Of a DNA stretch of 64,000 bases, positions 34,447 through 62,006 are shown in pieces (positions within the stretch are counted from its first letter, which is position 1; each line of letters begins with the position of its first letter). Source of the DNA: Gammaproteobacteria bacterium (GTDB taxonomy: Bacteria; Pseudomonadota; Gammaproteobacteria; Eutrophobiales; Eutrophobiaceae); NCBI GenBank assembly GCA_965243205.1, contig CBDEUK010000002.1, forward strand, positions 32,001 through 96,000, read 5' to 3'. Made by a program: the position numbers and the translations under genes. The notes beneath the pieces are model-generated. The model did no database searches, was not told the DNA's origin, and saw only the letters and a program-made list of their open reading frames with translations.

Positions 34447-34492
34447 CTCATAACCCGAAGGTCGCAGGTTCAAATCCTGCCCCCGCTACCAA
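34447..34492 (+). repeat. 46-bp duplicate of the tRNA-Met 3' end (att site; contains the left 17-bp core of the large element)
   Basis: CTCATAACCCGAAGGTCGCAGGTTCAAATCCTGCCCCCGCTACCAA, identical to 33370-33415. Confidence 0.95.
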
Positions 34493-36139
34493 TTGAACAG
34501 ACGGCTCGAAGTTATCGTTGTCATTAACAGCCATAGCTTCGAGCCGTTTTTCTATCTTTCCTTTGTCTTTCATCGCTTTATCCTCTGTGGCTATCCTCAG
34601 GATGCCTGCCAAGTCGCCATAGAGGTCGATAGACAGCTCGTCCTCACCGTCTTTGGACGAGAGCACGATCTTCTCAATCAGTCCTCGAACCTGTTCTCTG
34701 GCTTCAGCAGCTTTGCCGTCGCTAAGCGCTTTCGTTAGAGCCTCAATCTCAGACCTATATCGACGCGACATAGTGGGATGGATTAGCGGGCGCGGTTCGT
34801 CGTGCTCGTTTTCCGTCTGCGCCGCCAGTTCATCCAGTCTCGCGCTTACTCGTGCCAAATCGTCCTTGATCATTGAGGCTGGAACACCGTCCTTAATCGC
34901 CTGTACGATGTTTTCCCGCTCCTTGGTCAGCTTGGCCGCTTCTGCTTGGCGGCTGGCCAGAGCGGCATTTTGGGCGGCTCTCAGCGCGTTCATGTGGCGG
35001 GCATATTCATCGCAGAAGACCTGCACCAGATCATCCCGCATCAGGTGGCTCTGGAGGGCATTCAGGACTTTGCCTTCCAGCACGCTGCGTTTGATCGTCT
35101 TCTTGTTGGTGCAGACACTCTCGCCCTTGTTTCGGGCAGACGAACAGCCGTAACGCTCGCTGTTGATCTTGGAGTACCCGCCACCGCAGCTTCCACAAAC
35201 CAGTAGACCGGAAAGCAGATATTGAGGGCGCTTTCTGCTACCCAAGTGGCCCGAGCGCTTGTCCAGCGCTTTTTGACGTGCTTTGGCAGCCTCCCAGAGG
35301 CTTTGCGGCACAATCCTCAAATCCGGCACATTCTGGCGTATCCATTCGGATTCAGGGTTAAATCGAGGGACACGGCGTCCTGTAGTCGGGTCTTTGATAA
35401 ACCGCTGGCGGTTCCAGATCAGTTCACCAATATAGAGGTGATTGTTCAAAATGCCCGTGCCGCGTTTGCGGTTGCCATTGATTGTTGACTGTCCCCACGC
35501 CTTGCCCGATGGGCATGGAATTCCGTCTTCGTTTAGGCCGGAGGCTATGGCTTTTGGCGATTTATTCGCATGGGCGTATTCGTGGAAGATGCGGCGCACG
35601 ATTTCCGCCTGATCTTCGTCAATTGCCCGATCCCCGCGAATGGCTTCGCCTTGAGCATTGAACTGCTTGACCACGCGGTAGCCATAGGCAAGGCCGCCAC
35701 CGGACTTGCCATTTTCGACTTTGCCACGCAGGCCACGGCGGGTCTTGTCCGCCAAGTCCTTCAGGAACATGGCATTCATTGTCCCTTTCAGGCCGATATG
35801 CAGTGACGAAATTTCGCCCTCAGAAAGCGTGATGATCTTGACGCCAGCGAACTCCATGCGCTTGAAGATGCCTGCGATGTCTTCCTGATCGCGGGAAAGC
35901 CTGTCCAAGGCTTCCGCCAGCAGGATGTCGAATTCGCCATTCATGGCGGCTGTTAGAAGAGACTGGATGCCAGGCCGCATCAGTGAGGCACCGGATATGC
36001 CTGCATCGGTGTAGCAGTTGACGACTTTCCAATTCTCAGAGTCGGCGCGTTCGGAGCACAGCCGGATTTGATCTTCAATGGAGGCATCGCTCTGAAGATC
36101 GCTGGAATAACGCGCATATATGCTAATGCGTTGTGTCAT
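34448..36139 (-). CDS. Large serine recombinase (integrase)
   Basis: IYARYSS catalytic Ser, LDRLSRD, recombinase domain, Zn ribbon (LLSGLLVCGSCG), coiled coil; C-terminus LVAGAGFEPATFGL is encoded by the antisense tRNA fragment. Confidence 0.95.
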   Translation of the reverse strand: MTQRISIYARYSSDLQSDASIEDQIRLCSERADSENWKVVNCYTDAGISGASLMRPGIQSLLTAAMNGEFDILLAEALDRLSRDQEDIAGIFKRMEFAGVKIITLSEGEISSLHIGLKGTMNAMFLKDLADKTRRGLRGKVENGKSGGGLAYGYRVVKQFNAQGEAIRGDRAIDEDQAEIVRRIFHEYAHANKSPKAIASGLNEDGIPCPSGKAWGQSTINGNRKRGTGILNNHLYIGELIWNRQRFIKDPTTGRRVPRFNPESEWIRQNVPDLRIVPQSLWEAAKARQKALDKRSGHLGSRKRPQYLLSGLLVCGSCGGGYSKINSERYGCSSARNKGESVCTNKKTIKRSVLEGKVLNALQSHLMRDDLVQVFCDEYARHMNALRAAQNAALASRQAEAAKLTKERENIVQAIKDGVPASMIKDDLARVSARLDELAAQTENEHDEPRPLIHPTMSRRYRSEIEALTKALSDGKAAEAREQVRGLIEKIVLSSKDGEDELSIDLYGDLAGILRIATEDKAMKDKGKIEKRLEAMAVNDNDNFEPSVQLVAGAGFEPATFGL

Positions 36140-36338
36140 GATCTAGTCCACCTCGGTTCGGACGATGGGCGACGCACGCATTAAAATCAGCTTCAGCGGC
36201 ACGTCGTGCCATTAGTTTTACGAGCCGGATCAGGCGCTCGTCAGGTGAGATGTGATTATGACTCGCAATTCCATGAGTCTTCAAATCCATCGCCCCATCA
36301 CGTCCGTTTGCCTTGTCCTTTCTTGGAAGCTTGCTCAT
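36123..36338 (-). CDS. Small protein overlapping the integrase start (candidate directionality factor or regulator)
   Basis: RBS GGAGGG before ATG 36338; helical motif RLIRLVKLMARRAAEADF. Confidence 0.55.
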   Translation of the reverse strand: MSKLPRKDKANGRDGAMDLKTHGIASHNHISPDERLIRLVKLMARRAAEADFNACVAHRPNRGGLDHDTTH

Positions 36339-36630
36339 CGCAACCCTCCAAGAAAAAACAGCGAGAGGCATATACATGCTCTCGCTGAAGTTCGGGGCTT
36401 GTGCGCCAGAGTTCGCGGGTTGAGAGCGAGCGTGCGATGGGTGATCCACACGCATACGAACTTGGCGACCAAATAAAAAAGAGCACTGGACGTGAAGCTG
36501 TCCAAAAATGCTCTCTTACCATCCATGGTAGTGTTGAAAACCTTAATAAAAGGTAAATAACAGCCCGAAAACCCGCAGTATTCTGCGATTTTTTGCAAAA
36601 ACTTGGATGTTCGCGGCTGAAATACCATTC

Positions 36631-37047
36631 TCAGGCCGCCTTTTTCAGGGTGATGCGCAGCACAATCCACGCGCCAACGAGTGATCCAATCCACCAAGGG
36701 ATATCGGATACCGAGAATTGTTCTAGGATTGCCGCGAACGCTAACAGCACCATTCCAATCGAGGCATACTCCAAGATGCTGGTGCGTTGTACCGCGTTCT
36801 CTATGCGGTATTCACCACGGCTCAAGATGGGAATCGCTTGGCGCTGATGCACCATGCGTCGCCAGATGAAGCTCCGATACCATGCCTTGAGTGCGCCAAA
36901 GAGAAGTAACCAAGGCGAGGCGACATACAAGTAATACGGCCAGTGTGCAGGGGTATAACGGCTATCGGCATTCCCTAAAACGCCGTATGCGCCATAGGCG
37001 AGTGCCAAGAGCAAAATGATGTTGATCCAAACCCGTTTCATCATCAT
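36631..37047 (-). CDS. Hypothetical membrane protein (~4 TM)
   Basis: Hydrophobic segments; TAATG coupling to the virD4-like gene. Confidence 0.7.
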   Translation of the reverse strand: MMMKRVWINIILLLALAYGAYGVLGNADSRYTPAHWPYYLYVASPWLLLFGALKAWYRSFIWRRMVHQRQAIPILSRGEYRIENAVQRTSILEYASIGMVLLAFAAILEQFSVSDIPWWIGSLVGAWIVLRITLKKAA

Positions 37048-38663
37048 TAGTCCCCGTCGAATACCTTATCGAGTGCCTTGCCGATATCGAAGCCGGCACG
37101 CTGAAAATTGACGGGCGACGCCAGAGGTCGATCCGCATAATGCGGATGGATATCGAACAACGGGCTGCCATCCTTTTTGCGGTAGCGCTTATCCAGAAAA
37201 TACGCGGTCTTGAAACACGCAACCGGATAGGCGTGCGACAGGATGAGAATTTGCGCCGCAGGGTGCATCGTTGTGACTTCATCGGGTGTAATCAGACTAC
37301 GGGAAATCAAGCCATCATCGCGGCTCAAATAGTACGGGTCGGACAACAATCCGGCACGCCGTTCGGCACTGGCGTGGCTAACGGATTCAACTGTACCGAT
37401 CCCGCAAAGGCGCGACGTATATTCGGACGTCATCAGATCGTTCGTTCCGAAGATCTGAATGACGCCGCTATTGGCAACGAAGGTCTGCCAGCGTTGTTGG
37501 TATAGGTCTGCGAGCTGATTGAAGTCCTGTACGATCATGTGAAGTTGCATACCGTATCCGGCCATTAGCCCGTAGGCTGTCTCGATAGTTTCCATGCGCC
37601 CCAAGGCCGCCGCTTCTTCAATCAAGAAGTAAACAGGCGGATCGGGCTTGGTCTTGAATCTCGTCACCGCCGTAATGGCGATGCTGATTAACATCCGCAG
37701 AAAGCGGTTGTACGTGAATAGGCGTCCAGCAGGCAGGACGATGAAAATACTTGTCTTGCCGTTTTCCAACTCATCGAATGAAAAGTCTGTTTCTGACAGC
37801 GCACGCTGGATACGTGGGCTTTCGAGAAAATGTGTGTTTTGCTGTGCCGTGGACATAACGCCGGACAGTTCCTTGGAAGCCTTGTTCAGGATACGCGCAG
37901 CCGCAGCGCGGACATACTCATTGCGGCTCTGCGCCATACCCGGATGCACAAGATGAACATTGTCGTCTTCGTCTTTCTCGAAACGACCGCCGACCATTGC
38001 TTTGAAGTCACGCGCAGACAGATTCAGCAATCGGCGAACTTGGGCAAGGTCACGCGATTTCTTGTCCGTTGGGATCAACGGCAGTGGCGTGGCCGCCACG
38101 TACAGGATCAACCCCATAATCAGGTTGCGGGCTTCGTCGTTCCAGAAGGGTTCCTTAACGCCTCGATCCGTAACTATGCTGTCTGCAATGAGAAGTGCGT
38201 CTTCCACAAAGTCATCTCTGTCAGGATCGAGCCAGTCAAGTGGGTTAAATCTTGCTGGTGACACTCCCAGATAGGAGCAGACTTCATCCCAAGGATCGAC
38301 GATGACCAACTTGTGGCCAAGAACATCGCGACGATATCGGCCACAGATTAGCGATAGTTCACCGTCCTTTACGTCAACACCCAAGAAAGAACCCCAATGA
38401 TCCATACAGCGCGGCGCCGAGCTGGTTAGCAGCTTGCCGCTGCGAGTAGGGGCGACGGTGAGCAGGTGGCGTTGCGTGTTTGAGGTAATAGCGAATGCAC
38501 TTCCTTTGGCATTATCCGGCAAGCCATAGCCGAGGAAAATTTTTCCATTTTCTCCATAGTGACGTGTTTTCAAATGCGCTTTGTCTGCCCAACGGGCGGA
38601 ACCGTGCATGTTCGGATCGCGACTATAAATACGCGCCGCTTCATATTGCTCACGGGTTTGCAT
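37047..38663 (-). CDS. VirD4/TraG-like type IV coupling protein lacking N-terminal TM helices
   Basis: HGSARWA, Walker A APTRSGK, DVKDGE, FNPLD, variant Walker B LIEEAAALG, Q..Q...LY, LITPDEV. Confidence 0.88.
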   Translation of the reverse strand: MQTREQYEAARIYSRDPNMHGSARWADKAHLKTRHYGENGKIFLGYGLPDNAKGSAFAITSNTQRHLLTVAPTRSGKLLTSSAPRCMDHWGSFLGVDVKDGELSLICGRYRRDVLGHKLVIVDPWDEVCSYLGVSPARFNPLDWLDPDRDDFVEDALLIADSIVTDRGVKEPFWNDEARNLIMGLILYVAATPLPLIPTDKKSRDLAQVRRLLNLSARDFKAMVGGRFEKDEDDNVHLVHPGMAQSRNEYVRAAAARILNKASKELSGVMSTAQQNTHFLESPRIQRALSETDFSFDELENGKTSIFIVLPAGRLFTYNRFLRMLISIAITAVTRFKTKPDPPVYFLIEEAAALGRMETIETAYGLMAGYGMQLHMIVQDFNQLADLYQQRWQTFVANSGVIQIFGTNDLMTSEYTSRLCGIGTVESVSHASAERRAGLLSDPYYLSRDDGLISRSLITPDEVTTMHPAAQILILSHAYPVACFKTAYFLDKRYRKKDGSPLFDIHPHYADRPLASPVNFQRAGFDIGKALDKVFDGD

Positions 38664-39702
38664 AGCTACCTCCCGCGCATTCCTGCACGCTCAAGACTTT
38701 CTGCGTCCGGTAAGCGGCGCTGAGGGAGTGAAAGTACCTTGTCAGGTTTTGGCTGATATCAGAGGTACTATGGAGAAAGGCATCTGCCAATCCAGTGAGA
38801 TAGCGGTCTTCACGCAGGCCAAGAAAATAGACAAAAGTCAGCGTATTGTTCTTGGCTGCTTCTACCTGTTGTCGGAGCGCGTCATCGGTGCCGATCTGTC
38901 CATCGGTTATGACAATGACCGCTTTTTGATGATTATCGAAATACGACTGATTCAGACTGTCATAGGCACTGGCGAGTGGGCGATACAAATCCGTCCCTCC
39001 CTCAGCGACCAGTGAATCCAGTTTGAAGTCTCCGGCGTTGCAATTTTGATAAACATTATTGTGATAGCTGTAGCCACTACTGAAGCTGGCAACGGCGCAC
39101 TCCGCTGTTGGCGGCAATCCCTTCAAGAACTCGTTAGCGCTTTGCTGGACATCGGAGACAACGCTGGCCATTGAGCCGGAACGATCTAGCAAGAGCGTAA
39201 AAGCCATTTTCGGCGCGGCGCTGGTAACGGTCTTGTAGTCAAAACAGAGTTTGCGCCCGCCGATGGTATAGACCGCCAAGCTGTCCGCAGGCGGTGAAAC
39301 GAAGTTTCCATTACTGTCCTTGAAGCTGGTGATAATCTGCAAACCGTTGGGGGTCTGCCTAGTCCTGATGATCTCGGACGTACCACCGCTGAAGGCGACG
39401 ACAAGATCATTATCCAGATCAATATCAAAGCCCGACGTTATGCGGATACCACGCGCATCGGTCATACCGATATTCGATACTGTTCGGATCAGGACATCGG
39501 ACGGCAGTAGCTTCGGATCAGTTCTGACTTTCAGCGATATGCTTTGTTCGAAGTCGTAACGGCTTCGAAGAACAATTGTCGGGGCTATGGCCTCAGTGCG
39601 GGACGTGATATTGATCGACGCATCCTGCGCAAGGCTAGCTGCCGAGATTAAGCCACCGACACACAAAGTGCCGATGGCCGCAGAAAGTTTTACACATTTC
39701 AT
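38650..39702 (-). CDS. Exported von Willebrand factor A domain protein
   Basis: Signal peptide (ASLA-Q), MIDAS DRSGS, GGT, VITDG. Confidence 0.85.
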   Translation of the reverse strand: MKCVKLSAAIGTLCVGGLISAASLAQDASINITSRTEAIAPTIVLRSRYDFEQSISLKVRTDPKLLPSDVLIRTVSNIGMTDARGIRITSGFDIDLDNDLVVAFSGGTSEIIRTRQTPNGLQIITSFKDSNGNFVSPPADSLAVYTIGGRKLCFDYKTVTSAAPKMAFTLLLDRSGSMASVVSDVQQSANEFLKGLPPTAECAVASFSSGYSYHNNVYQNCNAGDFKLDSLVAEGGTDLYRPLASAYDSLNQSYFDNHQKAVIVITDGQIGTDDALRQQVEAAKNNTLTFVYFLGLREDRYLTGLADAFLHSTSDISQNLTRYFHSLSAAYRTQKVLSVQECAGGSYANP

Positions 39703-39714
39703 AATCCAGACCCC

Positions 39715-40395
39715 CTATAGCAACGTCTTTAGACGCGAGCGGGTCTGGGCCTCGCCGAGCAGGTCAAAGTCCAATTCGCCGGAACGGGCGCGTCCCAGAA
39801 CGCCAATTGAAGCAAGGTAGGCTTGAAGCATCTGATCCTGATCGGGATGAACCCGCATGATTTTCAGGACGCTCAGCCGATCCGCAAAATTTGCCAAGGC
39901 CAGGTCACTTGGCACTTCTTGAGGCACCTGAACTTCAATTTCCTGATCCGCAGACTGAAACGGCACATGAACTGTCGATCCAAGCCAGTAAATACGCACT
40001 GCATCGGGCTGGGATAGGCTGATCGTGGTTTCGATCTGCTCAAACGCCATGACCAGATCGGAGAAGGATGGCTTGAAGTGAACCAGATTCTTGACCTCAC
40101 CAGCTTGATCCAAGAGCTGGCTTGGGGTTCCCGACCATGCAATGCGGTTCGATGATGCGCTCAGGACGATGTGAATTTGCGCGTCACGCGTTGCCCTGCG
40201 ACGTTCAAGCGAGGTGAGCTGCTGAAGCAGGTTCAGAGCTGTATTCATCGCTTCGTCGCGGTCGTCGTCGGCGACGGTGCCACCATTTTCGATCAAAACG
40301 AAAATAGCCTCAGAAGGCTGCACGACCGGGGCAGAGGTCTGATCTCCGCAGGCAACCAGAAAGAAAGACAGTGAAATGATTTTGAATGCTTTCAT
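39715..40395 (-). CDS. Hypothetical lipoprotein (possibly degenerate vWA fold)
   Basis: Lipobox LVAC; IFVLIENGGT resembles a degenerate beta1-MIDAS segment. Confidence 0.72.
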   Translation of the reverse strand: MKAFKIISLSFFLVACGDQTSAPVVQPSEAIFVLIENGGTVADDDRDEAMNTALNLLQQLTSLERRRATRDAQIHIVLSASSNRIAWSGTPSQLLDQAGEVKNLVHFKPSFSDLVMAFEQIETTISLSQPDAVRIYWLGSTVHVPFQSADQEIEVQVPQEVPSDLALANFADRLSVLKIMRVHPDQDQMLQAYLASIGVLGRARSGELDFDLLGEAQTRSRLKTLL

Positions 40396-40400
40396 GGCTG

Positions 40401-40994
40401 TTACTCCTGTGGTGACTTCAGATTGCGGAAGGCACGGGTGGTGAACATTGCGAGGACGATATTGATCACCGCAATGACGGCGCTCACGCCAATGGCGAGA
40501 CCCTTGTTCTCAGCCAGAAACGCCATGACGCCGCTTTGCTCGGTTTGAATCCCAAAACCCGATGGAGCAATTTCGCGGGCCACCAAGGTGTAGAGATTGA
40601 CGACTTCCAGTCCGATCACGAGGATCAGAATCAAGCCAGCAAAGGTCGCGATGATCTGGTTCTGCGGGTGTGAGAACCATTCTTGCGGATCGTCCAGTAT
40701 TTTCTGCCGATAGACTTCTGCCCAAATGAAGATCGGTGTACCGACCGAAAACGTTGCCAGCAACATCGAGATGATGTGAGAAGCATTGGCATCAGGATCG
40801 ATGGCATCAAATGCTGGGCCTATGACTGGCAGCTCCGATAAATAGGTTTCATTCATCAGACCGATGGTCTCGGTATATACGGCATAAAACATCGTCCACA
40901 TGGAGCCTTCCAGCACCAGATAGAACAATGTGGTGGCGATGGCTGCGAAGCTCGGTGGCCGCATTCCATCGAACGGGGATGCTTTATCAAACAT
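40401..40994 (-). CDS. Hypothetical membrane protein (~4 TM)
   Basis: Four hydrophobic segments; RBS AAGGGGG before ATG 40994. Confidence 0.75.
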   Translation of the reverse strand: MFDKASPFDGMRPPSFAAIATTLFYLVLEGSMWTMFYAVYTETIGLMNETYLSELPVIGPAFDAIDPDANASHIISMLLATFSVGTPIFIWAEVYRQKILDDPQEWFSHPQNQIIATFAGLILILVIGLEVVNLYTLVAREIAPSGFGIQTEQSGVMAFLAENKGLAIGVSAVIAVINIVLAMFTTRAFRNLKSPQE

Positions 40995-41184
40995 GATGCA
41001 CCCCCTTGGCCGACTTGCTGGCAATGTTCAGGCAGCCATGCTGGAAACAGCGCGGGTTTTCACACGTTACCCATAGTTCGCAGCGAAGCTGATCGGCGCA
41101 CGGGTCGGGCGGGGTTGGCTCGTAAACGGGATCGTTTGCCGCTTCAAGCGTGATGAGAACGGTGATGACTGGATAGTCAGACAT
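40987..41184 (-). CDS. Small Cys-rich hypothetical protein, first gene of the operon
   Basis: RBS AAGGAGG; five Cys (C-x5-C-x5-C-x4-C-x4-C); overlaps the next start. Confidence 0.5.
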   Translation of the reverse strand: MSDYPVITVLITLEAANDPVYEPTPPDPCADQLRCELWVTCENPRCFQHGCLNIASKSAKGVHHV

Positions 41185-41369
41185 TTAAAGCCTCCTTGCC
41201 CTGCCAAGCAGGGCATTTGAACGGGTTGTTCGGTTAAGAGGCTTTGCGCAAAGCTCGTAAGAAATACTATTTCAGGCGTAGAAAGCTGGGAAGCGAAAAG
41301 AACACTTCTGGTTAAGTTTAGCGTACCGACGTAAAATGCTAATTCGAATTAGATGGTTAGGTATGCCTC

Positions 41370-41990
41370 GTGCCTAGAAAACAGTGGGATCAGAAAAATC
41401 CGTATTGCAGACGATCAAAGCTCACCAAGGAGGCTTTTGAGCATGTCGTGTTGCACTACTTTATTGAAGTTACTTCAGGTCGAACACGAGACGTCTACGT
41501 TCAGCAGTTGAAGTCTGGGGCTAATGGATTTTCCATTACGCGCCAGACATTGAGCAGATATTTCGACATGATCGGTCAGTACATCTGGGACAATATGATC
41601 GTTCCGACCGATCCTGAGTACGAAGATAAACACGCGCTTGATCCGCTGCTTGATTTTGTCTACGGGAAAATCGAGCGCCTGCCGCGTAACTACAATTTAC
41701 TCTACCGATACATGGACGACTTTCCTGTCAAAGCAAAACATCCAGATTTGCCCGTTCAACGCACACTCATGTTTCATCTGTTGTTACAGCGCTCGAAAAC
41801 ACTGAGAGGCTTTTCGAAAAAGCAGTTCTATCTGGAGTTCAGCCGAATTTTCTTTATGTGTTTCGTTGTTGAACAAAAAGGGCTGGATATGAGTCGTAAC
41901 GATAATTTTCATGAATATTTTATGACGAAGAAGATCAATCAAGTAGCCTACACATGGATGATTAGAATTCTCCGAGAACATCCACTATAG
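41370..41990 (+). CDS. IS1595/IS1016-transposase-derived DNA-binding protein without a recognisable DDE core
   Basis: NPYCRRSKL, ITRQTLSRYF, and C-terminal RGFSKKQFYL...LREHPL resemble IS1016-type transposase ends; no VEVDE motif. Confidence 0.55.
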   Translation: MPRKQWDQKNPYCRRSKLTKEAFEHVVLHYFIEVTSGRTRDVYVQQLKSGANGFSITRQTLSRYFDMIGQYIWDNMIVPTDPEYEDKHALDPLLDFVYGKIERLPRNYNLLYRYMDDFPVKAKHPDLPVQRTLMFHLLLQRSKTLRGFSKKQFYLEFSRIFFMCFVVEQKGLDMSRNDNFHEYFMTKKINQVAYTWMIRILREHPL

Positions 41991-41991
41991 G

Positions 41992-42390: not shown

Positions 42391-42478
42391 CCATAACTGC
42401 CTTCCTTAGTTATGGATATCAGAAAAAGATTAAGAAATTCAATAAAAAAGCAAAGGTGCAGTATGGCCAGTAAACGCG

Positions 42479-42808: not shown

Positions 42809-42817
42809 GGCAATTGC

Positions 42818-44405: not shown

Positions 44406-44416
44406 CGCTCAAAAAC

Positions 44417-44550: not shown

Positions 44551-44553
44551 TTT

Positions 44554-45867: not shown

Positions 45868-46131
45868 GTGTCAAAAAACGTGTGAAAATTGTGTGAAAAT
45901 TTCAATATACAGCGAATACGTAAAGATACCCTTTACGTCAATGGCTTAATCGAAACACACAGTGAGCAAGCGTTTGGTTTTTAGCGGTGAATGTTGGGAA
46001 TTGTGTGAAAATGGCTCCCCGGGCCGGATTGGAAATGCTCTTTTGAGGCAGGCTAGAGCATTGAAATAGCTTTCTTATTATTCTTCGCTAAGTTTCTGTG
46101 TGTGAAAATTGTGTCAAAAAGTGTGTGAAAA
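45867..46131. other. Intact attP-like site of the tyrosine integrase: tRNA-Asn-like core flanked by arm repeats
   Basis: Seven direct TGTGT(G/C)AAAA-type repeats (triplets at 45867-45899 and 46099-46131, one at 46002). Core 46012-46034 is the reverse complement of TTCCAATCCGGCCCGGGGAGCCA. Confidence 0.75.
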
Positions 46132-46133
46132 AA

Positions 46134-49100: not shown

Positions 49101-49112
49101 CGGGATAATTTG

Positions 49113-54005: not shown

Positions 54006-56005
54006 GTAATGTCAATATAAAAAGGGCTGTAGAAAACATACGTTCTGGCACGACCGTCTATACGCCGCTTGTCGAGATGATCGTTAATGCGATTCAGGCC
54101 ATCGACAGTAAAAAGACAGAGGACGGTGAAGTTCAGGTAATCGTCAAGCGCTCCGGCCAAGAGGACATAGAAAACAAAATCCCGCCGGTAGAGAGCTTCC
54201 TAATCACGGATAACGGTATCGGATTTACCGATGAAAATCGGGATTCATTTGATACGTTGTACTCAGACTTCAAGATTTCGCAGGGCGGAAAAGGTTTCGG
54301 GCGTTTTACATGCTTACGATACTTTGAGGATTTGCACGTCGATAGCATTTATTCCGAAGGTCAGGCATTCAAACGCCGAAAATTTTCGATGGGGAGAGAC
54401 AATGACATCATTGTTAGTGAAAAAATCGAAGATACAGGCGAAAAGAGTTCTAAAACAACCGTAACGCTTTCATCGGCCAAGGACGGCAAGTTCACCGATA
54501 AGAAGCTATCAACCATTGCCAGAGTCTTGGTTGAGAAGTTGTTGCCGTATTTCATTGCACAAGACTATTCCTGTCCGAAAATATCGCTCATAGATGAGGG
54601 GAAATCGGAGGGCATTATCCTCAATGAGTTCGTCAGCAATGAGCTATCCGGCTTGATTAAGGAGATGAATGTTGCCGATGGCCACTATTCACTGAAAGGT
54701 ACACACGCGGATCATCAATTTTCAGTGCGCGTGTTCAAGTTCTATTCACCCAAGAGCCAGCGTAGCAAGATTAGCTTGGTGGCTCATAGGAGGGAGGCGA
54801 CTGATACAGCTATTCACAACTACATTCCAGAGTTTATCGATGAGTTTTACGATAAGGACGATACCGGATCGGATGACGTCGAGAAAAACTATATCGTAAA
54901 GGCGTATGTGTTTAGCGATTATCTCGATGACAACGTATCGCTGGAACGTGGTGGCTTCGAATTCCAAAAAGACAATGATCTTTTACTGGGCGTTTCTCAA
55001 AGTGATATTGAAAGTGCTGCCGCACAGATCGCCAAAGAAGCTGTTGGCGAAGATATTGTGGCGCGTCAGGAACGGAAGGTGGAGCGTGTTCGCTCATACG
55101 TTGAAGAGGAAGCACCGTGGCACAAGGCGATCATAGCAAGCGTTGATCTATCAACAATGCCGTACAAACCCTCTGATGCGGAAATAGAGGCTTTGCTACA
55201 AAAGGAGAAATACAAGCAAGAGGTTCAAATAAAGGGCAAGGTCAATAAGTTGCTCAATGAAGCCACGATTGACGATCTAAAGACCGATGTGCGCGAGATC
55301 GTCAATCAGATATCCGAAACAAGCAAGAATGACCTCATCCACTACATTGCCTTGCGCCGTGATGTGCTGAACCTCTTCGAAAGAAACTTGGAGCTTGATC
55401 CAGACGGTCAGTATTCGTCCGAAGGCACAGTGCATGACATCATCTTTCCGCGACGGCAAGACGACGAAGGCACATTCTTTGAAGAACACAACTTATGGAT
55501 CATTGATGAACGTCTGAATTTTACCAACTACGTTTCGTCGGACTTGCCCCTCAATGGAGGCAACTCGGAAAGACCGGATTTACTGGCCTACGATAACCGT
55601 GTGCTATTCAGGGGTGACAATGAGGCCAGCAATCCCGTCACAATCTTTGAGTTTAAGAAACCGCAGAGAGATGACTTCGTAAATCCTTCATCCAAGGAAG
55701 ATCCGGTTCAGCAAATCGTCCGGTACGTGAATAGCATTAAGGCCGGTGATTACAAAACACCAAAAGGCCGGAAAATACTGGTTGCTGAAAATACGCCATT
55801 CTATGGCTATGTGGTTTGTGATTTAACCAGCAAGGTAGAAAAGTGGCTTGAAACTGAGAAGGACTTCAAGCCGATGCCGGATGGCCTTGGATGGTTTCGC
55901 TGGCATGGAAATATCAACTTGTATATCGAAGTCATTAGTTGGGACAAAGTTCTGAAAGATGCAGGTATGAGAAACAAAATATTCTTCAAGAAGTTGGGAA
56001 TATAA
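54002..56005 (+). CDS. GHKL (MORC/MutL-like) ATPase fused to a C-terminal PD-(D/E)xK nuclease-like domain
   Basis: E.IVNAI.A, DNGIG, GGKGFGRF; C-terminal RPDL...IFEFKKP...QIVRY; ATGA overlap with the Type ISP gene. Confidence 0.82.
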   Translation: MSNVNIKRAVENIRSGTTVYTPLVEMIVNAIQAIDSKKTEDGEVQVIVKRSGQEDIENKIPPVESFLITDNGIGFTDENRDSFDTLYSDFKISQGGKGFGRFTCLRYFEDLHVDSIYSEGQAFKRRKFSMGRDNDIIVSEKIEDTGEKSSKTTVTLSSAKDGKFTDKKLSTIARVLVEKLLPYFIAQDYSCPKISLIDEGKSEGIILNEFVSNELSGLIKEMNVADGHYSLKGTHADHQFSVRVFKFYSPKSQRSKISLVAHRREATDTAIHNYIPEFIDEFYDKDDTGSDDVEKNYIVKAYVFSDYLDDNVSLERGGFEFQKDNDLLLGVSQSDIESAAAQIAKEAVGEDIVARQERKVERVRSYVEEEAPWHKAIIASVDLSTMPYKPSDAEIEALLQKEKYKQEVQIKGKVNKLLNEATIDDLKTDVREIVNQISETSKNDLIHYIALRRDVLNLFERNLELDPDGQYSSEGTVHDIIFPRRQDDEGTFFEEHNLWIIDERLNFTNYVSSDLPLNGGNSERPDLLAYDNRVLFRGDNEASNPVTIFEFKKPQRDDFVNPSSKEDPVQQIVRYVNSIKAGDYKTPKGRKILVAENTPFYGYVVCDLTSKVEKWLETEKDFKPMPDGLGWFRWHGNINLYIEVISWDKVLKDAGMRNKIFFKKLGI

Positions 56006-56020
56006 GTAGATGAGGAAGCA

Positions 56021-58615
56021 GTGTCCGTCCTGAAAGAAATACTTGAGTGGTCTTCCGAGCGCCCAACTTGGCAGCGTGATGCTTTACGCCGCCTAGTTCT
56101 CAACGACGAGCTTTCGGAGGATGATGTTCGAGAGCTTGGGAAAATCTGCAAAGGGGCGCACGGTCTGAGTGAACAACAGGATGCTTTGCCCCTAACGAAA
56201 GATCATATACCTACAGCAGACACCACCTCATCTCAAGTTGTCCTAGACTCAATCTTTCATCATCGCGGGGTCAACGCGCTGGCCGAAAACCAGACCTTGC
56301 ATTTTTCTCCTGCTCTTACGGTTGTATATGGTGACAATGCCGCAGGTAAGACCGGATACATCAGGATTCTGAAAAGCGCCTGCCGTGCTAGAGGGCAAGA
56401 GAACATACTTGGTAATGTTGTGTCCGGTAGTACCCCTCATACACCAACCGTTTCAATCAAATACAAGATTGGAAACCAGTCGGAATTGCAGGAATGGGCT
56501 GGTGAAGGCGAAGATGATTTTATCGCTCGCGTAAGTGTTTTCGACACTCAATCTGCGGCTGTCTATCTAACAGAGAAAACAGATGTTGCATTCAGGCCAT
56601 TCGGTCTTGATCTTTTCGATAAACTGGTAAAAGCATGCAAGGCTGTTCGGTCAAATCTGGAAAGGGAACAACGTGCACTAAACACAAACGATCTGTTTGC
56701 ATTACAGAGTCAGATACCAGACGGTACGCGGGTTGCAAAACTGCTTACGGGTATTTCATCGTTGACAAAACCAGAGGCCGTGCAGTCACTTTCACAATTT
56801 TCCGAGGAAGAAAAATCTCGCTTTGCATTGCTGGAAAAATCTTTGCAGGATTTGCAAGCCAATGATCCGGAAAAGTTAGCACGGCAAATGACACTCCGTG
56901 TAAGTCGCATACGAACCCTTGTTAAACATCTTCAATCAGTAGAAAGGATTCTTTCGGAAGAATCGATTTCCACAGTGTTCGATGCCAGAACGGAGGGGCG
57001 TCGCAAGAGTGAAGAAGCAAAAAGGCTTCGTGAAGCAACATTTCCAAAAGGAGTGCTTGAGGGAACAGGCTCGGAGATTTGGTCCCAACTATGGGACGCT
57101 GCACAACGATTTTCCGAAGAATCAGCCTATCAGGGTCAAGAGTATCCAGTTGTCGAAAATGATGCCCAGTGCGTTCTATGCCAACAGGAGCTAGATGACG
57201 CAGCGACCCTGAGACTCAAACAGTTCCAGACATTTGTAACGTCTACAACTGAGCGTGAGCTTCGTGAGTTGCGCGAGAAATACGCCAAAGCGAAACAGGA
57301 GTTTGTGGATTTTCAGACCAATAATGAAGTAATCCAAGAGACGATCAAGGAAATCCGTATTGAGGACGAAGAATTTGCGAATGCCGTGTCCACCGCATTA
57401 GATAGCAATGATCACCGTCGCACAAATATCGTAAACGCTTTGAATGAAAATCAGGATATTTCATCGGATTGTCCAGAAATGGTAGCAATATCTGGTGAGG
57501 TTGAGGCATTAGCTGGCCAGCTTGAAGAACGTATTAAAACTCTTAGTGGCAGTATCAAAGCGGACGAGAAAAAGCGCATGGACGCAGAGGTGCTGGAGTT
57601 TCGTGCCCGCAAGATACTAGCGGAGCATGAGGAAATCGTACTTAATGAAATCGAGCGAAAGAAAAAGTTGGCAGCGTATGAGCTATGCCTCAATGATACT
57701 AAGACGCAATCAATTACCCAGAAAAGCACGGCTGTTACAAAAAAATTCGTCACAAGTAAGCTTAAGGACAGTTTCAGCGACGAATTGGAAAATCTTGCTT
57801 TTCGTCATGTTGAGGTGGAATTGAAAGAAGCCGGAGGTACAGAAGGAGTTCTGTATCACAAGCTTATTTTGACTCGCGCACCAGGCGTGGAATTACCGCG
57901 TGTGGTGAGTGAAGGTGAGCAGAGGTGCTTGTCTATTGCAGCGTTTTTTGCGGAATTAAGTACCGCAGATGATCCGTCAGGTATTGTGTTTGACGATCCT
58001 GTTTCATCGCTTGATTACAAATGGCGCGAAGGTGTTGCTAAACGACTTGTCTTAGAATCGCAGCAACGCCAAGTTATTGTCTTTACCCATGATGTTGTAT
58101 TTTTGCTTCTGCTTAAGCAGTTTTCGGAAGAGTTGGATGTTGACCAACTAGATCAACATGTAAGGCAACTTTCTATCGGCGCGGGTGTTTGTGCGGAAGA
58201 GCTACCGTGGGTTGCATTACCGATAAGGAAGAAGATTGGATTCCTAAAAAACCAGTATCAGGGCGCGGAAAAGTTGCATCGAGATGGACACCAAGGAGCT
58301 TACGAAAAGGAGGCTAGTTATATATATGGCCTTCTTCGAGAGGCATGGGAGCGAGCGCTCGAAGAGGTGCTGTTAGGAGGGGTAGTAGAAAGGTATCGCC
58401 CTAGTGTCCAGACGCAGCAGGTTATACAAGTTGCAGACATAACGGACGATGACTGCAAGGCTTTAAGCGCGGCAATGACGAAATGCTCCAAATGGTTGAC
58501 CGGTCACGATCAAGCAGCGGCAGCAAGAGCAGAACTTCCTGAGCCAGATGCTCTAAAGGCGGATATCGAAGAGTTGGAAAACTGGGTATCAGCCATTCGC
58601 AAGCGCCGCAATTAG
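56021..58615 (+). CDS. Rad50/RloC-like ABC-type ATPase with zinc hook
   Basis: GDNAAGKT, coiled coil with CVLC, SEGEQ, FDDPVSSLD, FTHD; C-terminal helical domain (possibly HEPN-like). Confidence 0.82.
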   Translation: MSVLKEILEWSSERPTWQRDALRRLVLNDELSEDDVRELGKICKGAHGLSEQQDALPLTKDHIPTADTTSSQVVLDSIFHHRGVNALAENQTLHFSPALTVVYGDNAAGKTGYIRILKSACRARGQENILGNVVSGSTPHTPTVSIKYKIGNQSELQEWAGEGEDDFIARVSVFDTQSAAVYLTEKTDVAFRPFGLDLFDKLVKACKAVRSNLEREQRALNTNDLFALQSQIPDGTRVAKLLTGISSLTKPEAVQSLSQFSEEEKSRFALLEKSLQDLQANDPEKLARQMTLRVSRIRTLVKHLQSVERILSEESISTVFDARTEGRRKSEEAKRLREATFPKGVLEGTGSEIWSQLWDAAQRFSEESAYQGQEYPVVENDAQCVLCQQELDDAATLRLKQFQTFVTSTTERELRELREKYAKAKQEFVDFQTNNEVIQETIKEIRIEDEEFANAVSTALDSNDHRRTNIVNALNENQDISSDCPEMVAISGEVEALAGQLEERIKTLSGSIKADEKKRMDAEVLEFRARKILAEHEEIVLNEIERKKKLAAYELCLNDTKTQSITQKSTAVTKKFVTSKLKDSFSDELENLAFRHVEVELKEAGGTEGVLYHKLILTRAPGVELPRVVSEGEQRCLSIAAFFAELSTADDPSGIVFDDPVSSLDYKWREGVAKRLVLESQQRQVIVFTHDVVFLLLLKQFSEELDVDQLDQHVRQLSIGAGVCAEELPWVALPIRKKIGFLKNQYQGAEKLHRDGHQGAYEKEASYIYGLLREAWERALEEVLLGGVVERYRPSVQTQQVIQVADITDDDCKALSAAMTKCSKWLTGHDQAAAARAELPEPDALKADIEELENWVSAIRKRRN

Positions 58616-59299
58616 AGTAGCTCAAGGGCATGGTGCCCTTGAAGCCAGTTCATTTTGAATATTCTCGATGGATGCCAGTGCGTTTCTGCGCTGATGAGTA
58701 TCAGGCTCACTTCTCGCAAGTTCGTTAAACGCCTCTCTCAAATATGCGTGCAGCTCGTTTTTGTTCTTGGCTGCCAGTTCAAATCGCGTAACCAGTGTCA
58801 TTGTTACCTCCTGTTCTTGGAGGCCGCGACCATCGCGGCCTTATCAGTGGCCGCTTGTGCGCAGGAGGTCATGATTTGCACCTATGGTCGAAATATATGG
58901 AGAAGCGTGTCCGAACAGGATCGGCACGCTTGCTGGTCTATGGCTTACTGATGCAACGAATAGGTCACTCGAAAAGGCCGCAGGTTGCGGCTGGAAAGGA
59001 TGGAGCGTTACGAGTAATCGGTACGCATTGAAGGACAGTCATCGAAGATGAGCGGCCATCAATGGAAGAGAAGGAAGTATTCACCTTGCAGGTGAGCATG
59101 ATAGATCGAGAAGCAATTGAGGGGCATTGCATCCCCTCTGAATAAAGAAAAATGACGGTTTCCAGCGGAGCCAGACCCTCCGCAATTTTTCTGGATTCTT
59201 TCACCCCCGCCTAGTCGGCCTAGTCGCCAGAGGTTCATGAGCAGCGCACCACAAGCGGTGCTTGTAAGAACCTCAACAGCGAATTTAGGAGCAAAGACG

Positions 59300-59815
59300 A
59301 TGAGTGAAGAAATCAGAATTTATGTGGCAGACCTCGCAGCCTATAACAACGGCAAGTTACACGGCGTATGGATAGATGCGACCCAAGACATTAACGACAT
59401 TCAAGACCAGATTAACGCCATGCTGGCCGAAAGCCCCGAAGGCTTCGCGGAAGAATACGCCATTCACGACTACGAAGGGTTCGGTGGTTATTCTGTGAGC
59501 GAATACGAAGGTATTCAGTCATTGCATGAAATTGCCTGTTTCATTGAAGAGTATCCCGACCTTGCAGGGGAATTGCTGAGCCACTTTGGCGGACATCTTG
59601 AGGATGCCAGAAAGGCTATCGAAGAGAATTATTCCGGTTGCTACAAGTCCCTTGCGGACTATGCCGAGGAACTTACCGAAGGCACCAGCCAGATTCCTGA
59701 AAATCTCGCTTACTACATCGACTATGAGCGCATGGGGCGTGATATGGATTTAAGTGGGGATATTTACACCATCGAAACGGCCTATGAAGAAGTACACGTT
59801 TTCTGGAGTCATTGA
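59300..59815 (+). CDS. ardA: Antirestriction protein ArdA
   Basis: IYVADLAAYNNGKLHGVWID, EEYAIHDYE, YYIDYERMGRD; highly acidic; RBS AGGAG. Confidence 0.93.
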   Translation: MSEEIRIYVADLAAYNNGKLHGVWIDATQDINDIQDQINAMLAESPEGFAEEYAIHDYEGFGGYSVSEYEGIQSLHEIACFIEEYPDLAGELLSHFGGHLEDARKAIEENYSGCYKSLADYAEELTEGTSQIPENLAYYIDYERMGRDMDLSGDIYTIETAYEEVHVFWSH

Positions 59816-59828
59816 TCGCTGAGAGTGA

Positions 59829-59858
59829 TGCCGCCGGATCATCCGGCGGCAAATTTTC
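59829..59858. terminator. Hairpin terminator between ardA and the relaxase gene
   Basis: TGCCGCCGGA-TCA-TCCGGCGGCA followed by T-rich sequence; a second hairpin lies at ~59893-59921. Confidence 0.6.
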
Positions 59859-59945
59859 GTTTTCGTCCTGTTTCAGGGGAGGAAAAAATTTGCGCCGCCA
59901 AGCCTTGTTCCGGCTTGGCGGCCTGTCGCGGCTTACAGAGGCCGC

Positions 59946-61289
59946 TCAGAGTTCCGGCTCCATGTCTATATCGGGATCGTCCATGTCTAGATCGTTATCG
60001 AATTCCCGCTCGAACTCGCCGCGCTGATCGAATTCAAGGTCATGGAGCCAGTTTTTTTCAAGAGCTTCATTGCCCTTGGCCTGTTCCTGCAACGTGAATT
60101 GTGACAGATCGCGAAACAGGTCTTTGCGTTCCTTGTCCTGTTTTTCGCGTAGCAGGTTGATCTGCACTTGCAGGTTTTGACGTTGCGTAAGCTGTTTATG
60201 GATCAGTGCTTCGCGCTCTTTCTGATCGCGTTTGTGCGCCTGCCATGTTTCCTGCTCATTGCGCTTTCTGGTTTTCCAGTAGCGACCGTTGATCTTGTCC
60301 CATAATCCCTTGAAACCTTTGCGAACGCGGGAAGAACGCTTCAGTTCTTCGGCCTGCCAGCGTTCCTGTTGAGTGGCTTCCAGATTCGCACGCTCTTTTC
60401 GCTGCATCGTGACCATTTCCAGCTTTGCAGCCTTGAGCGGCTGCTTTGCCTTTCGGTGTTCACGGGCAAGGTCATCTGTATAGTTCCGAAAGAGTTTGCT
60501 AAGCCTGCCATGGATGTTGGTTTTGATGTCATCGACGGAAGGCAGGCTTTCAGCCTTTCCGAGACGCGCTTCCAGTGCTTTCTTTTTCTGACCAAGCTGG
60601 CGGGTCAGCGAATAGACCTCGCCATGCAGGTCAACGGCGACGTGGCCACGTTTTCCTTTCGCTAGATAGTAGCCTTGCTCTTGCAGAGCATTGGAAAAAC
60701 TCTGTTTGCTGTCCGATATCGCCCAGCTTTCCTGTAATTCGCGCTTGATGTCGGACGGCTTGCGGCCAATGCGTAAAGCCTGTTGCCATTCGGCGCGGGT
60801 GTAGTTAAGAGGGTTCTTGCGGCTTTTGTCCCGAAACCCGTCCGGCATCTGCCAGCCGTTTTCCAGATAGAGCGATTTGGCTATCTCGTTCAGCTTGATC
60901 TTGGGGTGCGAAATATTGATGGCCTTCATTTCCTCGGTATCAATCCGGCTCCAGACACAGTGAGCGTGACGGCGGCCTTCCTTCTCATGGAAAACGACAA
61001 CACGCGGCTGACCTTCCAGTCCGAGCTTCTTTTCAACCCGATCCAACGTGGTCTCGAACGTGTCGATGGAAACCCGCTCGTTCTGCGGAGGGTTCAGGCT
61101 CAGGGCATACATGAATTGCCTGCATTGCGTGCCCTTGGACAGGGCATAGGCTTCGTTCAGTGCCCCCAATACGTCAGAAGCAATAAACCCACGAACCTCG
61201 TGGACATTCACATGCTCGTTTTGCTCGCCGTTGAGCAGGTGTAGCGCCATTTGCCGCCCTCCGGCACGCTGGTTGCCTTTAAGGATCAT
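59946..61289 (-). CDS. Relaxase (MOBP/VirD2-like HUH domain)
   Basis: MILKG..R, LSLNPP, HEKEGRRHAH (HUH), C-terminal coiled coil. Confidence 0.9.
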   Translation of the reverse strand: MILKGNQRAGGRQMALHLLNGEQNEHVNVHEVRGFIASDVLGALNEAYALSKGTQCRQFMYALSLNPPQNERVSIDTFETTLDRVEKKLGLEGQPRVVVFHEKEGRRHAHCVWSRIDTEEMKAINISHPKIKLNEIAKSLYLENGWQMPDGFRDKSRKNPLNYTRAEWQQALRIGRKPSDIKRELQESWAISDSKQSFSNALQEQGYYLAKGKRGHVAVDLHGEVYSLTRQLGQKKKALEARLGKAESLPSVDDIKTNIHGRLSKLFRNYTDDLAREHRKAKQPLKAAKLEMVTMQRKERANLEATQQERWQAEELKRSSRVRKGFKGLWDKINGRYWKTRKRNEQETWQAHKRDQKEREALIHKQLTQRQNLQVQINLLREKQDKERKDLFRDLSQFTLQEQAKGNEALEKNWLHDLEFDQRGEFEREFDNDLDMDDPDIDMEPEL

Positions 61290-61710
61290 CGCTCGACCCC
61301 TCGAATGGCTCTGGTGGCGGTTGCTGGCTTTGCGGCTTCAGCCCCATTCCTTCTATTAAGGTGTCGCGCATCCAGCGAATGGCCGCTACCGCATCATGCA
61401 GGCTTTGCAGCACTTCCTCGTTGACGGGCAGGGAGCCTGAGTTGGCCGCCTTTGCGAGCTGGTTGATGTTGCTGGCGATACGGGATTGCCCCAACGCGCC
61501 AAGCAGCTTGGCCAGCAACTTCTGATCCTGAATCCTTGGCTTGCGGGAAGGCGGTGGCCGGACGCCGTTTTGCAGTATCGCGTCCTTGATAAACTGCCCC
61601 AACGGCTGGCCATCGGCCAGTTTTGTCAATTCAGCACGTTCCTGTTCAGTCAGGCGAACCGAGAACGGCGCTGGATAGGTCTTCTTAGAGGGAGGACGCT
61701 TTCTAGCCAT
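61279..61710 (-). CDS. mobC: MobC relaxosome accessory protein
   Basis: RHH-like SVRLTEQER, and SNINQLAKAAN. Confidence 0.88.
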   Translation of the reverse strand: MARKRPPSKKTYPAPFSVRLTEQERAELTKLADGQPLGQFIKDAILQNGVRPPPSRKPRIQDQKLLAKLLGALGQSRIASNINQLAKAANSGSLPVNEEVLQSLHDAVAAIRWMRDTLIEGMGLKPQSQQPPPEPFEGSSDDP

Positions 61711-61865
61711 TTTTTCGCCCTCCCATTGATGCAGAAGGGGTTTTTCGGTTAGGATTCGCGCCCAGAACGGTGCGGGCTCCCTCTAAGCTAGACAGTAACG
61801 CACTAAGGGGTTGCGGCTTAGAGGCGATATCAAAGGCAGTGACTAACGGTAGATACCGTTGGCAG

Positions 61866-61882
61866 CCTGCCCCCGCTACCAA
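61866..61882 (+). repeat. 17-bp att core (right end of the island)
   Basis: CCTGCCCCCGCTACCAA, identical to 34476-34492 and to the tRNA 3' end. Confidence 0.92.
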
Positions 61883-62006
61883 ATAAATCAACGACTTGTC
61901 TTCAGTTCTGAAACTTTCTGACAATATTGGCAATAAATTTTGTCATATTATTTATAAAATCAAATTGGCACCAAAAAGCTGATGCCAATTATTGTGATTA
62001 ATTTTC

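Follow-up and report, generated by a model that had tools for sequence, protein, structure and literature searches.

What becomes of an integrase whose gene contains the site at which the enzyme recombines? The question is raised by a 64,000-nucleotide (nt) stretch of a gammaproteobacterial genome (GenBank assembly GCA_965243205.1, contig CBDEUK010000002.1, positions 32,001 to 96,000; called the window here), in which an element of 27,390 bp (27.4 kb; 34493 to 61882) is lodged in a tRNA-Met(CAT) gene, at its 3' end. This element is probably an integrative mobilizable element (IME), and it was inserted by its own large serine recombinase (LSR; hereafter, the integrase). We consider it likely, judging from sequence comparison, that the integrase gene spans attP, the attachment site of the element, and that integration swaps the C-terminal tail of the enzyme; this explanation draws on the geometry of the two element ends, its conservation, the maintenance of the reading frame, and a protein-level constraint on the tail. 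Since dozens of related islands keep the layout, it is probably used. Coordinates are collected in Table 1.

The integrase belongs to the serine family by several lines of evidence. Residues 7 to 145 match the resolvase-type catalytic domain (PF00239, 6e-25), and a recombinase domain (PF07508, 2e-21) and a zinc ribbon (PF13408, 4e-11) are also present. The best PDB match is the catalytic domain of the TP901-1 integrase (2e-14), the protein matches the PHROG integrase family phrog_95 (6e-92), and residues Y8, R10, S12, S13, and Q16, which include the R-x-S nucleophile motif, are unchanged across 15 homologs. An AlphaFold2 model of the homolog P0053 contains long helices (residues 370 to 417, 422 to 446, and 457 to 474) of the kind expected for a coiled coil. 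Up to the attachment core, a 17-bp sequence (CCTGCCCCCGCTACCAA) that encodes LVAGAG in the integrase frame, the gene itself supplies no stop codon. As integrated, the protein has 563 amino acids (aa) and ends LVAGAG-FEPATFGL (i.e., ...SVQLVAGAGFEPATFGL or ...NFEPSVQLVAGAGFEPATFGL, followed by the stop); the last 15 codons and the TGA stop (34448 to 34450, overlapping the complement of the CAT anticodon) are an antisense reading of the tRNA copy at the left element end (attL). At the right end (attR), the core stands in the same phase within an open reading frame (ORF) that lies upstream of the accessory mobilization gene mobC: integrase codon 550 begins at base 34492, and codon 18 of this ORF begins at base 61882. 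By arithmetic on the coordinates, the joined form would comprise 608 aa, the last 53 of which would follow LVAGAG as a tail. The TAG stop of the tail overlaps the mobC ATG by 8 nt (ATGGCTAG, 61703 to 61710). An initial annotation of this DNA had proposed both ends, and its coordinates, frames, equal codon phase, and 8-nt overlap were all correct. The attP core thus lies inside the integrase ORF, which acquires a new 3' end upon integration, and this arrangement is kept across the family.

A pattern search found the core three times in the window and never in 100 shuffles. Two copies mark the element ends, as had been recognized, but the third, in the intact tRNA-Met gene, had been overlooked. 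Similarly, the tail and stop of the integrated form do come from the antisense tRNA; however, the left end holds a 3' fragment of 46 to 47 bp rather than a full tRNA, and the intact gene lies 1.06 kb further left, separated from the element by an islet with HicB- and HicA-like genes that had been missed. This islet was probably left behind by another island that inserted at the tRNA and stood in tandem with the element. In the intact tRNA, the anticodon stem is GGG/CCC and positions 1 and 72 are mismatched, as in initiator-like tRNAs. The G+C content steps up at one end and down at the other, from 0.29 to 0.39 in the flanks to 0.42 to 0.56 between core copies 2 and 3. In contigs from three sequencing runs (X5, X9, and X11), a match of 95 to 97% identity to the relaxase-mobC end breaks off at 61881/61882 and gives way to three different flanks; because three samples diverge at this point, the core is a recombination boundary in independent insertions. 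LSRs typically use short att sites of ~40 to 50 bp with a central 2-bp crossover; of such a site, the sequence shows only an identity block of 17 bp and, around it, a partial dyad (TTGGTAGC ... GCTGCCAA). No sequence matching attR was recovered from a further run with the same species label (X21), which is not proof of its absence, and the right flank was matched in 0 of 20 other genomes searched for an empty site.

Where does the integrase frame end in relatives? We took 80 related integrase loci from species-representative genomes. The frame runs into the antisense tRNA at 61 of them, ending ..LVAG.GFEP.TF(G/R)L-stop at 51 and ..GSGG(W/R)I-stop, or a read-through of it, at 10. At six loci, a long-form integrase gene is directly followed by mobC and the relaxase gene; the remainder comprises one heterologous tandem, three other ends, six genes broken far upstream, and three that run off the contig. 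An intact integrase gene that stops before the core was found at none of the 80. The best 120 database homologs (64 to 97% identity) include 72 and 23 proteins with the two tRNA-type ends, 18 long forms (554 to 633 aa), and 7 others. Searches of the PLSDB plasmids (DNA and protein modes) returned integrase homologs with 38 to 54% protein identity (63 to 73% at the DNA level), with no match past residue 565 of the 612-aa query and no closed plasmid carrying the long form. A 6.1-kb contig (L022) considered as a circular form was rejected: the contig holds an integrated element, whose attR is at the left end, and its termini do not overlap.

A variant of the integrase 3' end was observed at nine alphaproteobacterial loci (L042, L043, L045, L046, L050, L054, L062, L066, and L070), at which a second in-frame [LM]VAG precedes the attL core. 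The duplication lies in the last ~190 nt of the integrase ORF, and its unit consists of an attP-like P arm, the core, and a short P'-like arm; two clear core copies, 51 to 96 nt apart and with partly palindromic arms, are present at five of the loci (L043, L045, L046, L054, and L062). The frame is intact through to the tRNA-encoded stop at all nine. This duplication may be a mini tandem remnant or a duplicated attP.

To avoid selecting on the property under test, we fetched a second set of 80 metagenome loci by MobC similarity alone. The core was present within 330 nt upstream of mobC at 41 of these loci, and 39 were set aside: four that have the tail motif yet show no core at the mismatch limit applied (L083, L089, L108, and L109), one with a truncated 5' end (L119), and 34 with no core, other upstream contexts, and MobC identities mostly below ~50% (L124, L126, and L129 to L160). 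The frame that continues the integrase is open from the core to the mobC start at 40 of the 41 loci. With the window and seven genome loci added, it is open at 48 of 49 loci, whose tails reduce to 39 distinct ones at 95% identity. At only 3 of the 49 is the alternative integrase frame open. The tail stop falls within 9 nt of the mobC ATG at all 48 open loci, most often as an 8-nt overlap (25 loci) or a 1-nt gap (16 loci) and otherwise abutting (5 loci), in an ATGA overlap (1 locus), or 9 nt before the ATG (1 locus). The expectations that homologs would keep the tail free of early stops after LVAGAG and would keep its stop at the mobC start were thus borne out.

The tails also provide evidence that they are conserved and translated. 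Among 34 tails of at least 52 aa, the mean pairwise differences at codon positions 1, 2, and 3 were 0.405, 0.372, and 0.537, respectively (Wilcoxon p = 5e-5), and the true third position was still the most variable when either wrong frame guided the alignment. Along the stretch L-V-T-A-F-D-I-A-S-K-P-P..A-L-L-S, the majority-base fraction was mostly higher at positions 1 and 2 (0.41 to 1.00, and at least 0.9 at the best-conserved residues, e.g., D, I, P, and the final LLS), and at position 3 it was mostly 0.35 to 0.68, rising to 0.88 in A37 and L38, where this position is as conserved as position 1. Insertions and deletions among the tails comprise whole codons. The resulting consensus, ..L.TA.DI.SKPP..ALLS..EG.., extends over ~45 to 60 aa. 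A profile built from the 34 tails and compared with 1.84 billion representative proteins gave 26 matches, 22 of which are ORFs of 56 to 155 aa, most of them matching at the C terminus or within five residues of it, as expected for ORFs called at attR; the others are one 314-aa protein and three longer proteins with six-stretch repetitive matches. The motif is accordingly specific to its context. A word search with the tail alone was uninformative (it returned the query, one 338-aa fragment, and nothing else), and an ESM Atlas look-up with the tail gave no usable match.

A further argument comes from the occurrence of two frame classes. The peptides LVAGAG and IGSGGW are encoded by one DNA sequence (TTGGTAGCGGGGGC.GG) in two reading frames, and the integrases divide accordingly into an LVAG class (25 distinct tails) and a GSGG class (14 distinct tails). 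Both classes rejoin the same A.DI..KPP..LLS..EG frame downstream, because the spacing from the core to A.DI differs in length by class (i.e., a 1-nt compensation). A tandem at tRNA-Met (G004/L010) presents the two side by side: the outer, GSGG-class integrase meets the P' arm of an inner, LVAG-class element and ends at 576 aa, and the LVAG frame of the inner arm is open to mobC. The frame compensation can be understood only if the tail is read on from the integrase, which argues against a separate mobC leader peptide started in or near the core (at the TTG or ATG of LVAG or MVAG), which would do no more than deliver ribosomes to mobC and would be independent of both the integrase and the junction. 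Such a leader would agree with the conserved stop-start overlap, with a core that begins with TTG (or with ATG in L006, L120, and L125), and with the small ORFs that gene callers do call at attR. However, the GSGG-class core has no start codon in the tail frame, and upstream of the core at attR there is unrelated host DNA that lacks a conserved ribosome-binding site. We therefore judge the leader peptide very improbable.

The integrated ends of the two classes bear on what integration does to the protein. After the core, the LVAG class gains 14 aa and the GSGG class 2 aa, and these residues are unrelated. Since the ends differ so much, the tRNA-encoded residues are unlikely to matter, and the effect of integration is the removal of the conserved tail. 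The same difference also suits a neutral explanation, in which the arrangement is a by-product of compaction: attP, the origin of transfer (oriT), and the mobC ribosome-binding site would be crowded into the integrase 3' end, the open frame would reflect conserved, stop-poor DNA signals, and the two isoforms would be equivalent. The predicted disorder of the tail, the blocks conserved at all three codon positions, and the missing third-position excess in the core and P' arm (all described below) are consistent with this explanation, and the equivalent part of DsiB, a serine recombinase of Dehalococcoides, was judged divergent and unlikely to be functional in the DsiB passages of McMurdie et al. 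(PMC3146451). What it leaves unexplained are the 48 open frames of 49 compared with 3 for the alternative frame, a third-position excess that stays put under any guiding frame, the whole-codon indels, and the single-nucleotide compensation that brings two integrase classes into the same tail frame. On this balance, we regard a neutral origin as unlikely.

Several observations nevertheless weigh against a translated tail whose expression depends on excision. One locus of the 49 (L106) has a closed frame. The core and the P' arm (~8 codons past the core) vary about equally at the three codon positions (0.38, 0.39, and 0.42), as the P' half-site of attP would be expected to do. The codons for the 'EG' and 'ADYT' blocks are conserved at all three positions; this DNA-level signal, with its resemblance to known nick sites, points either to an oriT nick region or to a mobC promoter that is independent of the junction. 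The tail in the window reads ANPN in place of the ADYT block. In the AlphaFold2 model of the natural long form P0053 (68% identical to the window integrase; 40-row alignment), the serine-integrase body is recognizable, but residues 500 to 612 have predicted local distance difference test (pLDDT) values below 50 and the tail is not docked on the enzyme; given these values, the tail is predicted to be a disordered segment with short conserved motifs. Finally, the long isoform is encoded in places where no excision is involved, i.e., in the tandem array of G004 and in relatives that adjoin tRNA-Tyr (G003) or tRNA-Ser (G001) with the serine attP intact. The initial label of an excision-controlled switch is therefore too narrow, and the long isoform is the native full-length protein rather than a circle-specific one.

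Searches for regulatory signals in the tail region returned little. No promoter-like site was found by a sigma-70 consensus scan of minus strand 61711 to 61865 (the 155 bp upstream of mobC), which is weak evidence that mobC-relaxase expression depends on the junction; the same scan showed a terminator-like hairpin in the host flank upstream, and a scan of 34300 to 41500 gave fewer consensus matches than shuffles did. RNAalifold detected no consensus structure in the codon alignment of the 34 tails. A perfect 9-nt inverted repeat (61780 to 61788 and 61816 to 61824) coincides with the codons for ASKP and SLEG of the tail ORF and may be an oriT hairpin. Some relatives have perfect repeats of at least 7 nt, with other sequences, at a similar place.

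The relatives beside tRNA-Tyr and tRNA-Ser direct attention to a second recombinase gene in the element, which encodes a 437-aa protein with a DUF6538 domain and a tyrosine-recombinase-like domain. Homologs are present in related elements (tblastn, 38 to 42% identity). G003 has the order tRNA-Tyr, tyrosine recombinase homolog (40% identity), backbone with the vWA and coupling protein genes, integrase, core, mobC, and relaxase; in G001, the tyrosine recombinase homolog adjoins tRNA-Ser at the far end of the element. Copies of the core (as a 13-mer) occur only inside the integrase genes in G001, G002, and G003. In the window, the TTTTCACAC repeat has six matches against 0.88 expected, five of which fall in a 266-bp stretch upstream of this recombinase gene, where they flank a stretch similar to a tRNA 3' end. 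This 19-mer (46012 to 46030) has no other copy in the genome, and the attP-like site appears to be unused here. The element family thus seems to carry two integration systems, with the serine system used in the window and the tyrosine system seemingly used in G003 and G001.

Could the tyrosine recombinase have inserted the element of the window as well, the repeat in the integrase gene being incidental? Insertion at tRNA 3' ends and direct repeats of at least 17 bp are typical of tyrosine integrases, and the element does carry one together with an attP-like site. However, that site is intact and internal, its tRNA-like core is unlike the tRNA-Met core and has a single copy, the gene lies 10 kb from either end, and it is the serine recombinase gene that ends in the antisense tRNA at 61 of the 80 related loci. 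We hold this origin to be extremely improbable.

One genome contig of another relative contains several copies of the module. Three paralogous blocks of at least 35 kb (83 to 91% identity) are present on a single 1.2-Mb contig (G002:C2) of a metagenome-assembled genome (MAG), at ~28 to 30, 212 to 214, and 795 to 797 kb (L166 to L168 and L174 to L180), each with an internal integrase-core-mobC arrangement. There is no tRNA-Met core elsewhere in G002, and copies B and C differ in the orientation of a segment that carries a small resolvase-like gene. A proposal that the three long-form copies arose via the tyrosine recombinase was withdrawn; the gene is present only in copy B, where it lies beyond the block that all three have in common.

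On the reading that we prefer, in which integration removes a conserved tail, the cycle would proceed as follows. In the attP state, the integrase gene would end in the conserved tail, whose stop overlaps or abuts the mobC start, and integrase, mobC, and relaxase would form a translationally coupled unit downstream of the vWA and coupling protein genes. Recombination with the tRNA would cut the gene at the core and leave the tail at attR, where it could not be translated as part of the integrase; the last few residues of the integrated enzyme would instead be encoded by the antisense tRNA. The full-length protein would be the form that works on a free or incoming element, and the truncated protein may differ from it in activity or stability, by analogy with IntP and IntX of phage Mx8. 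Ribosomes that finish the integrase may re-initiate on mobC, which would raise mobC-relaxase translation when the junction is restored. Circularization would join one co-oriented block, as originally proposed: the vWA, coupling protein, 138-aa ORF, 110-aa ORF, and integrase genes at one element end and mobC and the relaxase gene at the other all lie on the minus strand and overlap tightly (vWA-coupling protein, 14 nt; coupling protein-138-aa ORF, 1 nt; 110-aa ORF-integrase, 17 nt; mobC-relaxase, 11 nt).

A more elaborate version of this mechanism can be imagined. The tail would be a state-encoded control module: full-length integrase could be encoded only by DNA in the attP state, and the conserved disordered segment would be required for productive attP x attB recombination; integration would delete the module, and the truncated enzyme would be inert or, together with the product of the 110-aa ORF, biased toward excision. 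The element would then possess a self-rewriting directionality switch without a classical recombination directionality factor (RDF), and the tyrosine system would be an alternative route in hosts without a matching tRNA-fMet. Within such a scheme, the tail may serve to protect from proteolysis or to contact the relaxosome at an oriT ~100 bp away. Taken jointly, these proposals are speculative, and we would not expect all of them to hold.

Attachment sites inside integrase genes are known from other systems. In SSV1-type fuselloviruses, whose integrases are archaeal tyrosine recombinases, attP lies inside int and integration splits the gene. In contrast to SSV1, which lacks a conjugation module and whose gene falls into two large parts, the gene described here loses a short tail. 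For Tn916, Celli and Trieu-Cuot reportedly found in 1998 that circularization brings the transfer genes under promoters at the opposite element end and so couples their transcription to excision. Circularization of the present element would likewise place transfer genes behind the other element end; in Tn916, transcription alone provides the coupling and the integrase ORF stays as it is, whereas the junction here lies inside an ORF and would add translational coupling.

In myxophage Mx8, attP is likewise located within int; upon integration, the gene acquires a different 3' end, and the altered protein was reported to retain activity with changed properties, according to the sections of a review on IntP and IntX (PMC6070905). 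The attP core inside the integrase ORF is the shared feature; Mx8 is a temperate phage with a tyrosine recombinase and no transfer-gene junction, whereas the present enzyme is an LSR on a mobilizable island and its tail ends at mobC. Precedents had initially been sought among tyrosine integrases, of which Mx8 stands, but they are not limited to that family. McMurdie et al. (2011) described in their treatment of dsiB that this Dehalococcoides gene invariably runs across attL and reaches its stop beyond the island, and speculated that DsiB attains full function only when the island is circular or has a tandem island beside it (PMC3146451). As with DsiB, at least as laid out there, the LSR gene described here overlaps attL at its 3' end and runs antisense into a tRNA-like gene to a stop outside the island. 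The target is ssrA for DsiB and tRNA-Met here. Unlike the Dehalococcoides module with its co-transcribed small serine recombinase DsiA, the ORFs adjoining the integrase in the window have no resolvase domain, and elsewhere in the genome a single further serine-recombinase match is located, on contig 1 (27% identity). The DsiB passages describe the overlapping part as divergent and contain no conserved tail, coding signature, or relaxosome link (PMC3146451); the likeness of DsiB to the present system is one of layout.

Other reports touch on single aspects. Artificial C-terminal fusions of an RDF to the phiC31 and Bxb1 integrases reprogram directionality through intramolecular contacts, according to Olorunniji et al. 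2017 (PMC5737554); unlike such a folded RDF, the natural tail is short and predicted to be disordered. In Alphaproteobacteria, the Paracoccus prophage vB_PamS_Pami6 uses a serine recombinase at tRNA-Met, and Mesorhizobium IMEs with serine recombinases have been reported; the passages on these recombinases do not describe an integrase ORF that crosses attP (PMC6536676, PMC8627217). According to the serine-recombinase sections of a 2017 review of IMEs (PMC5704250), the IMEs with a single serine recombinase identified by then were from Firmicutes, the site-specific ones that had been studied disrupt dispensable genes upon integration, and no RDF had been proposed for any serine-integrase IME. In the literature that we searched, there was no description of the tail of these integrases or its link with mobC, and no paper on an LSR attP that overlaps coding sequence with a stop codon changed by integration; as far as these searches reach, the element family is barely described. 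New here are the evidence for a conserved and translated tail, the two-frame compensation, the fixed stop-start junction with mobC, and the second integration system.

Serine integrases are prized for genome engineering, where their direction is set by a separate factor. If the proposed mechanism is true, a recombination product that rewrites its own enzyme would represent a new and compact control of direction or activity and would reveal how the transfer genes of mobilizable islands are timed. The family has many members and spreads widely; it targets a highly conserved initiator tRNA and carries defense and anti-restriction cargo. The comparative result turns the 2011 speculation on DsiB, as it is worded in the passages concerned, into a directly testable hypothesis, with the residues named and two natural frame classes as controls.

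The assignment to the IMEs rests on the integrase that the element encodes, on the direct repeats at its ends, on its insertion at a specific site, and on its other genes. Among these are genes for a relaxase, MobC, and a VirD4/TraG-type coupling protein (T4CP), and no match to VirB4 or other mating-pore families was found in a Pfam scan of 25 element ORFs, 9 of which had no match at all; since mobilization and coupling proteins are present with no mating-pore match among the scanned ORFs, the element probably falls in this class. An oriT is presumed to be present. The 110-aa ORF is conserved upstream of the integrase in many relatives (tblastn; L001, L002, L010 to L018, and others), has no match in Pfam, NCBIfam, or PHROG, and is a candidate accessory or directionality factor. 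Near-identical modules (90 to 100% protein identity) are encoded in a MAG labeled Oleiphilus sp. (L001) and in one labeled Candidatus Azotimanducaceae (L002), with identities to the window of 90% for the integrase, 91 to 97% for the T4CP, 93 to 94% for the vWA protein, and 97 to 100% for the 110-aa ORF. From these values, the element backbone appears to have moved recently between distant marine Gammaproteobacteria. Relatives of 95 to 97% identity are present in seawater and wastewater runs.

Table 1. Positions of the attachment sites, genes, and other features discussed, numbered from the first base of the window
Feature	Position	Strand	Description or evidence
Intact tRNA-Met(CAT)	33338-33414	+	ARAGORN; pattern search; sequence
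Core copy 1	33399-33415		Last 16 bases of intact tRNA-Met(CAT) plus next base
Islet between tRNA and element	33416-34446	+	1.06 kb; HicB/HicA genes; repeat-copy alignment
HicB-like antitoxin	33711-34046	+	PF15919, 7e-7
HicA-like toxin	34046-34309	+	PF07927, 2e-8
attL	34447-34492	+	46-47-bp copy of tRNA 3' part, anticodon loop to CCA+1
Integrase (LSR)	34448-36139	-	563 aa as integrated; PF00239, PF07508, PF13408
Core copy 2	34476-34492		Inside attL tRNA fragment
110-aa ORF	36123-36455	-	Overlaps integrase start by 17 nt
138-aa ORF	36631-37047	-	Co-oriented with integrase
VirD4/TraG-type T4CP	37047-38663	-	PF02534, 4e-65; PF12696
vWA protein	38650-39702	-	PF13519
Second recombinase (DUF6538 + tyrosine-recombinase-like, 437 aa)	44554-45867	-	PF20172, 2.5e-9; weak PF00589; phrog_1, 2e-20
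Second attP-like site	45880-46131	-	Five TTTTCACAC repeats flank tRNA-3'-end-like stretch 46012-46030
Type ISP restriction-modification enzyme	49110-54005	+	Pfam; cargo
HATPase protein	54002-56005	+	Pfam; cargo
AAA_13 ATPase	56021-58615	+	Pfam; cargo
ArdA anti-restriction protein	59237-59815	+	Pfam; cargo
HipA with helix-turn-helix (HTH) partner	within element		Pfam
MobA/VirD2-type relaxase	59946-61289	-	PF03432, 5e-13
MobC/NikA-like accessory protein (mobC)	61279-61710	-	PF05713, 4e-6
ORF upstream of mobC	61703-61933	-	Reads LPILSESFRTEDKSLIYLVAGAG-CQRYLPLVTAFDIASKPQPLSALLSSLEGARTVLGANPNRKTPSASMGGRKNG, then stop (...YLVAGAG-CQRYLPLV...GGRKNG)
P' arm of attP and 53-codon tail region	61703-61865	-	In frame with core; holds mobC Shine-Dalgarno
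attR / core copy 3	61866-61882	+	Right element boundary; shares only the 17 bp

Directly to the right of attR, a large AT-rich ORF with internal repeats occupies 62007 to 63962 on the minus strand and continues beyond; it looks like a gene for a repetitive surface protein.

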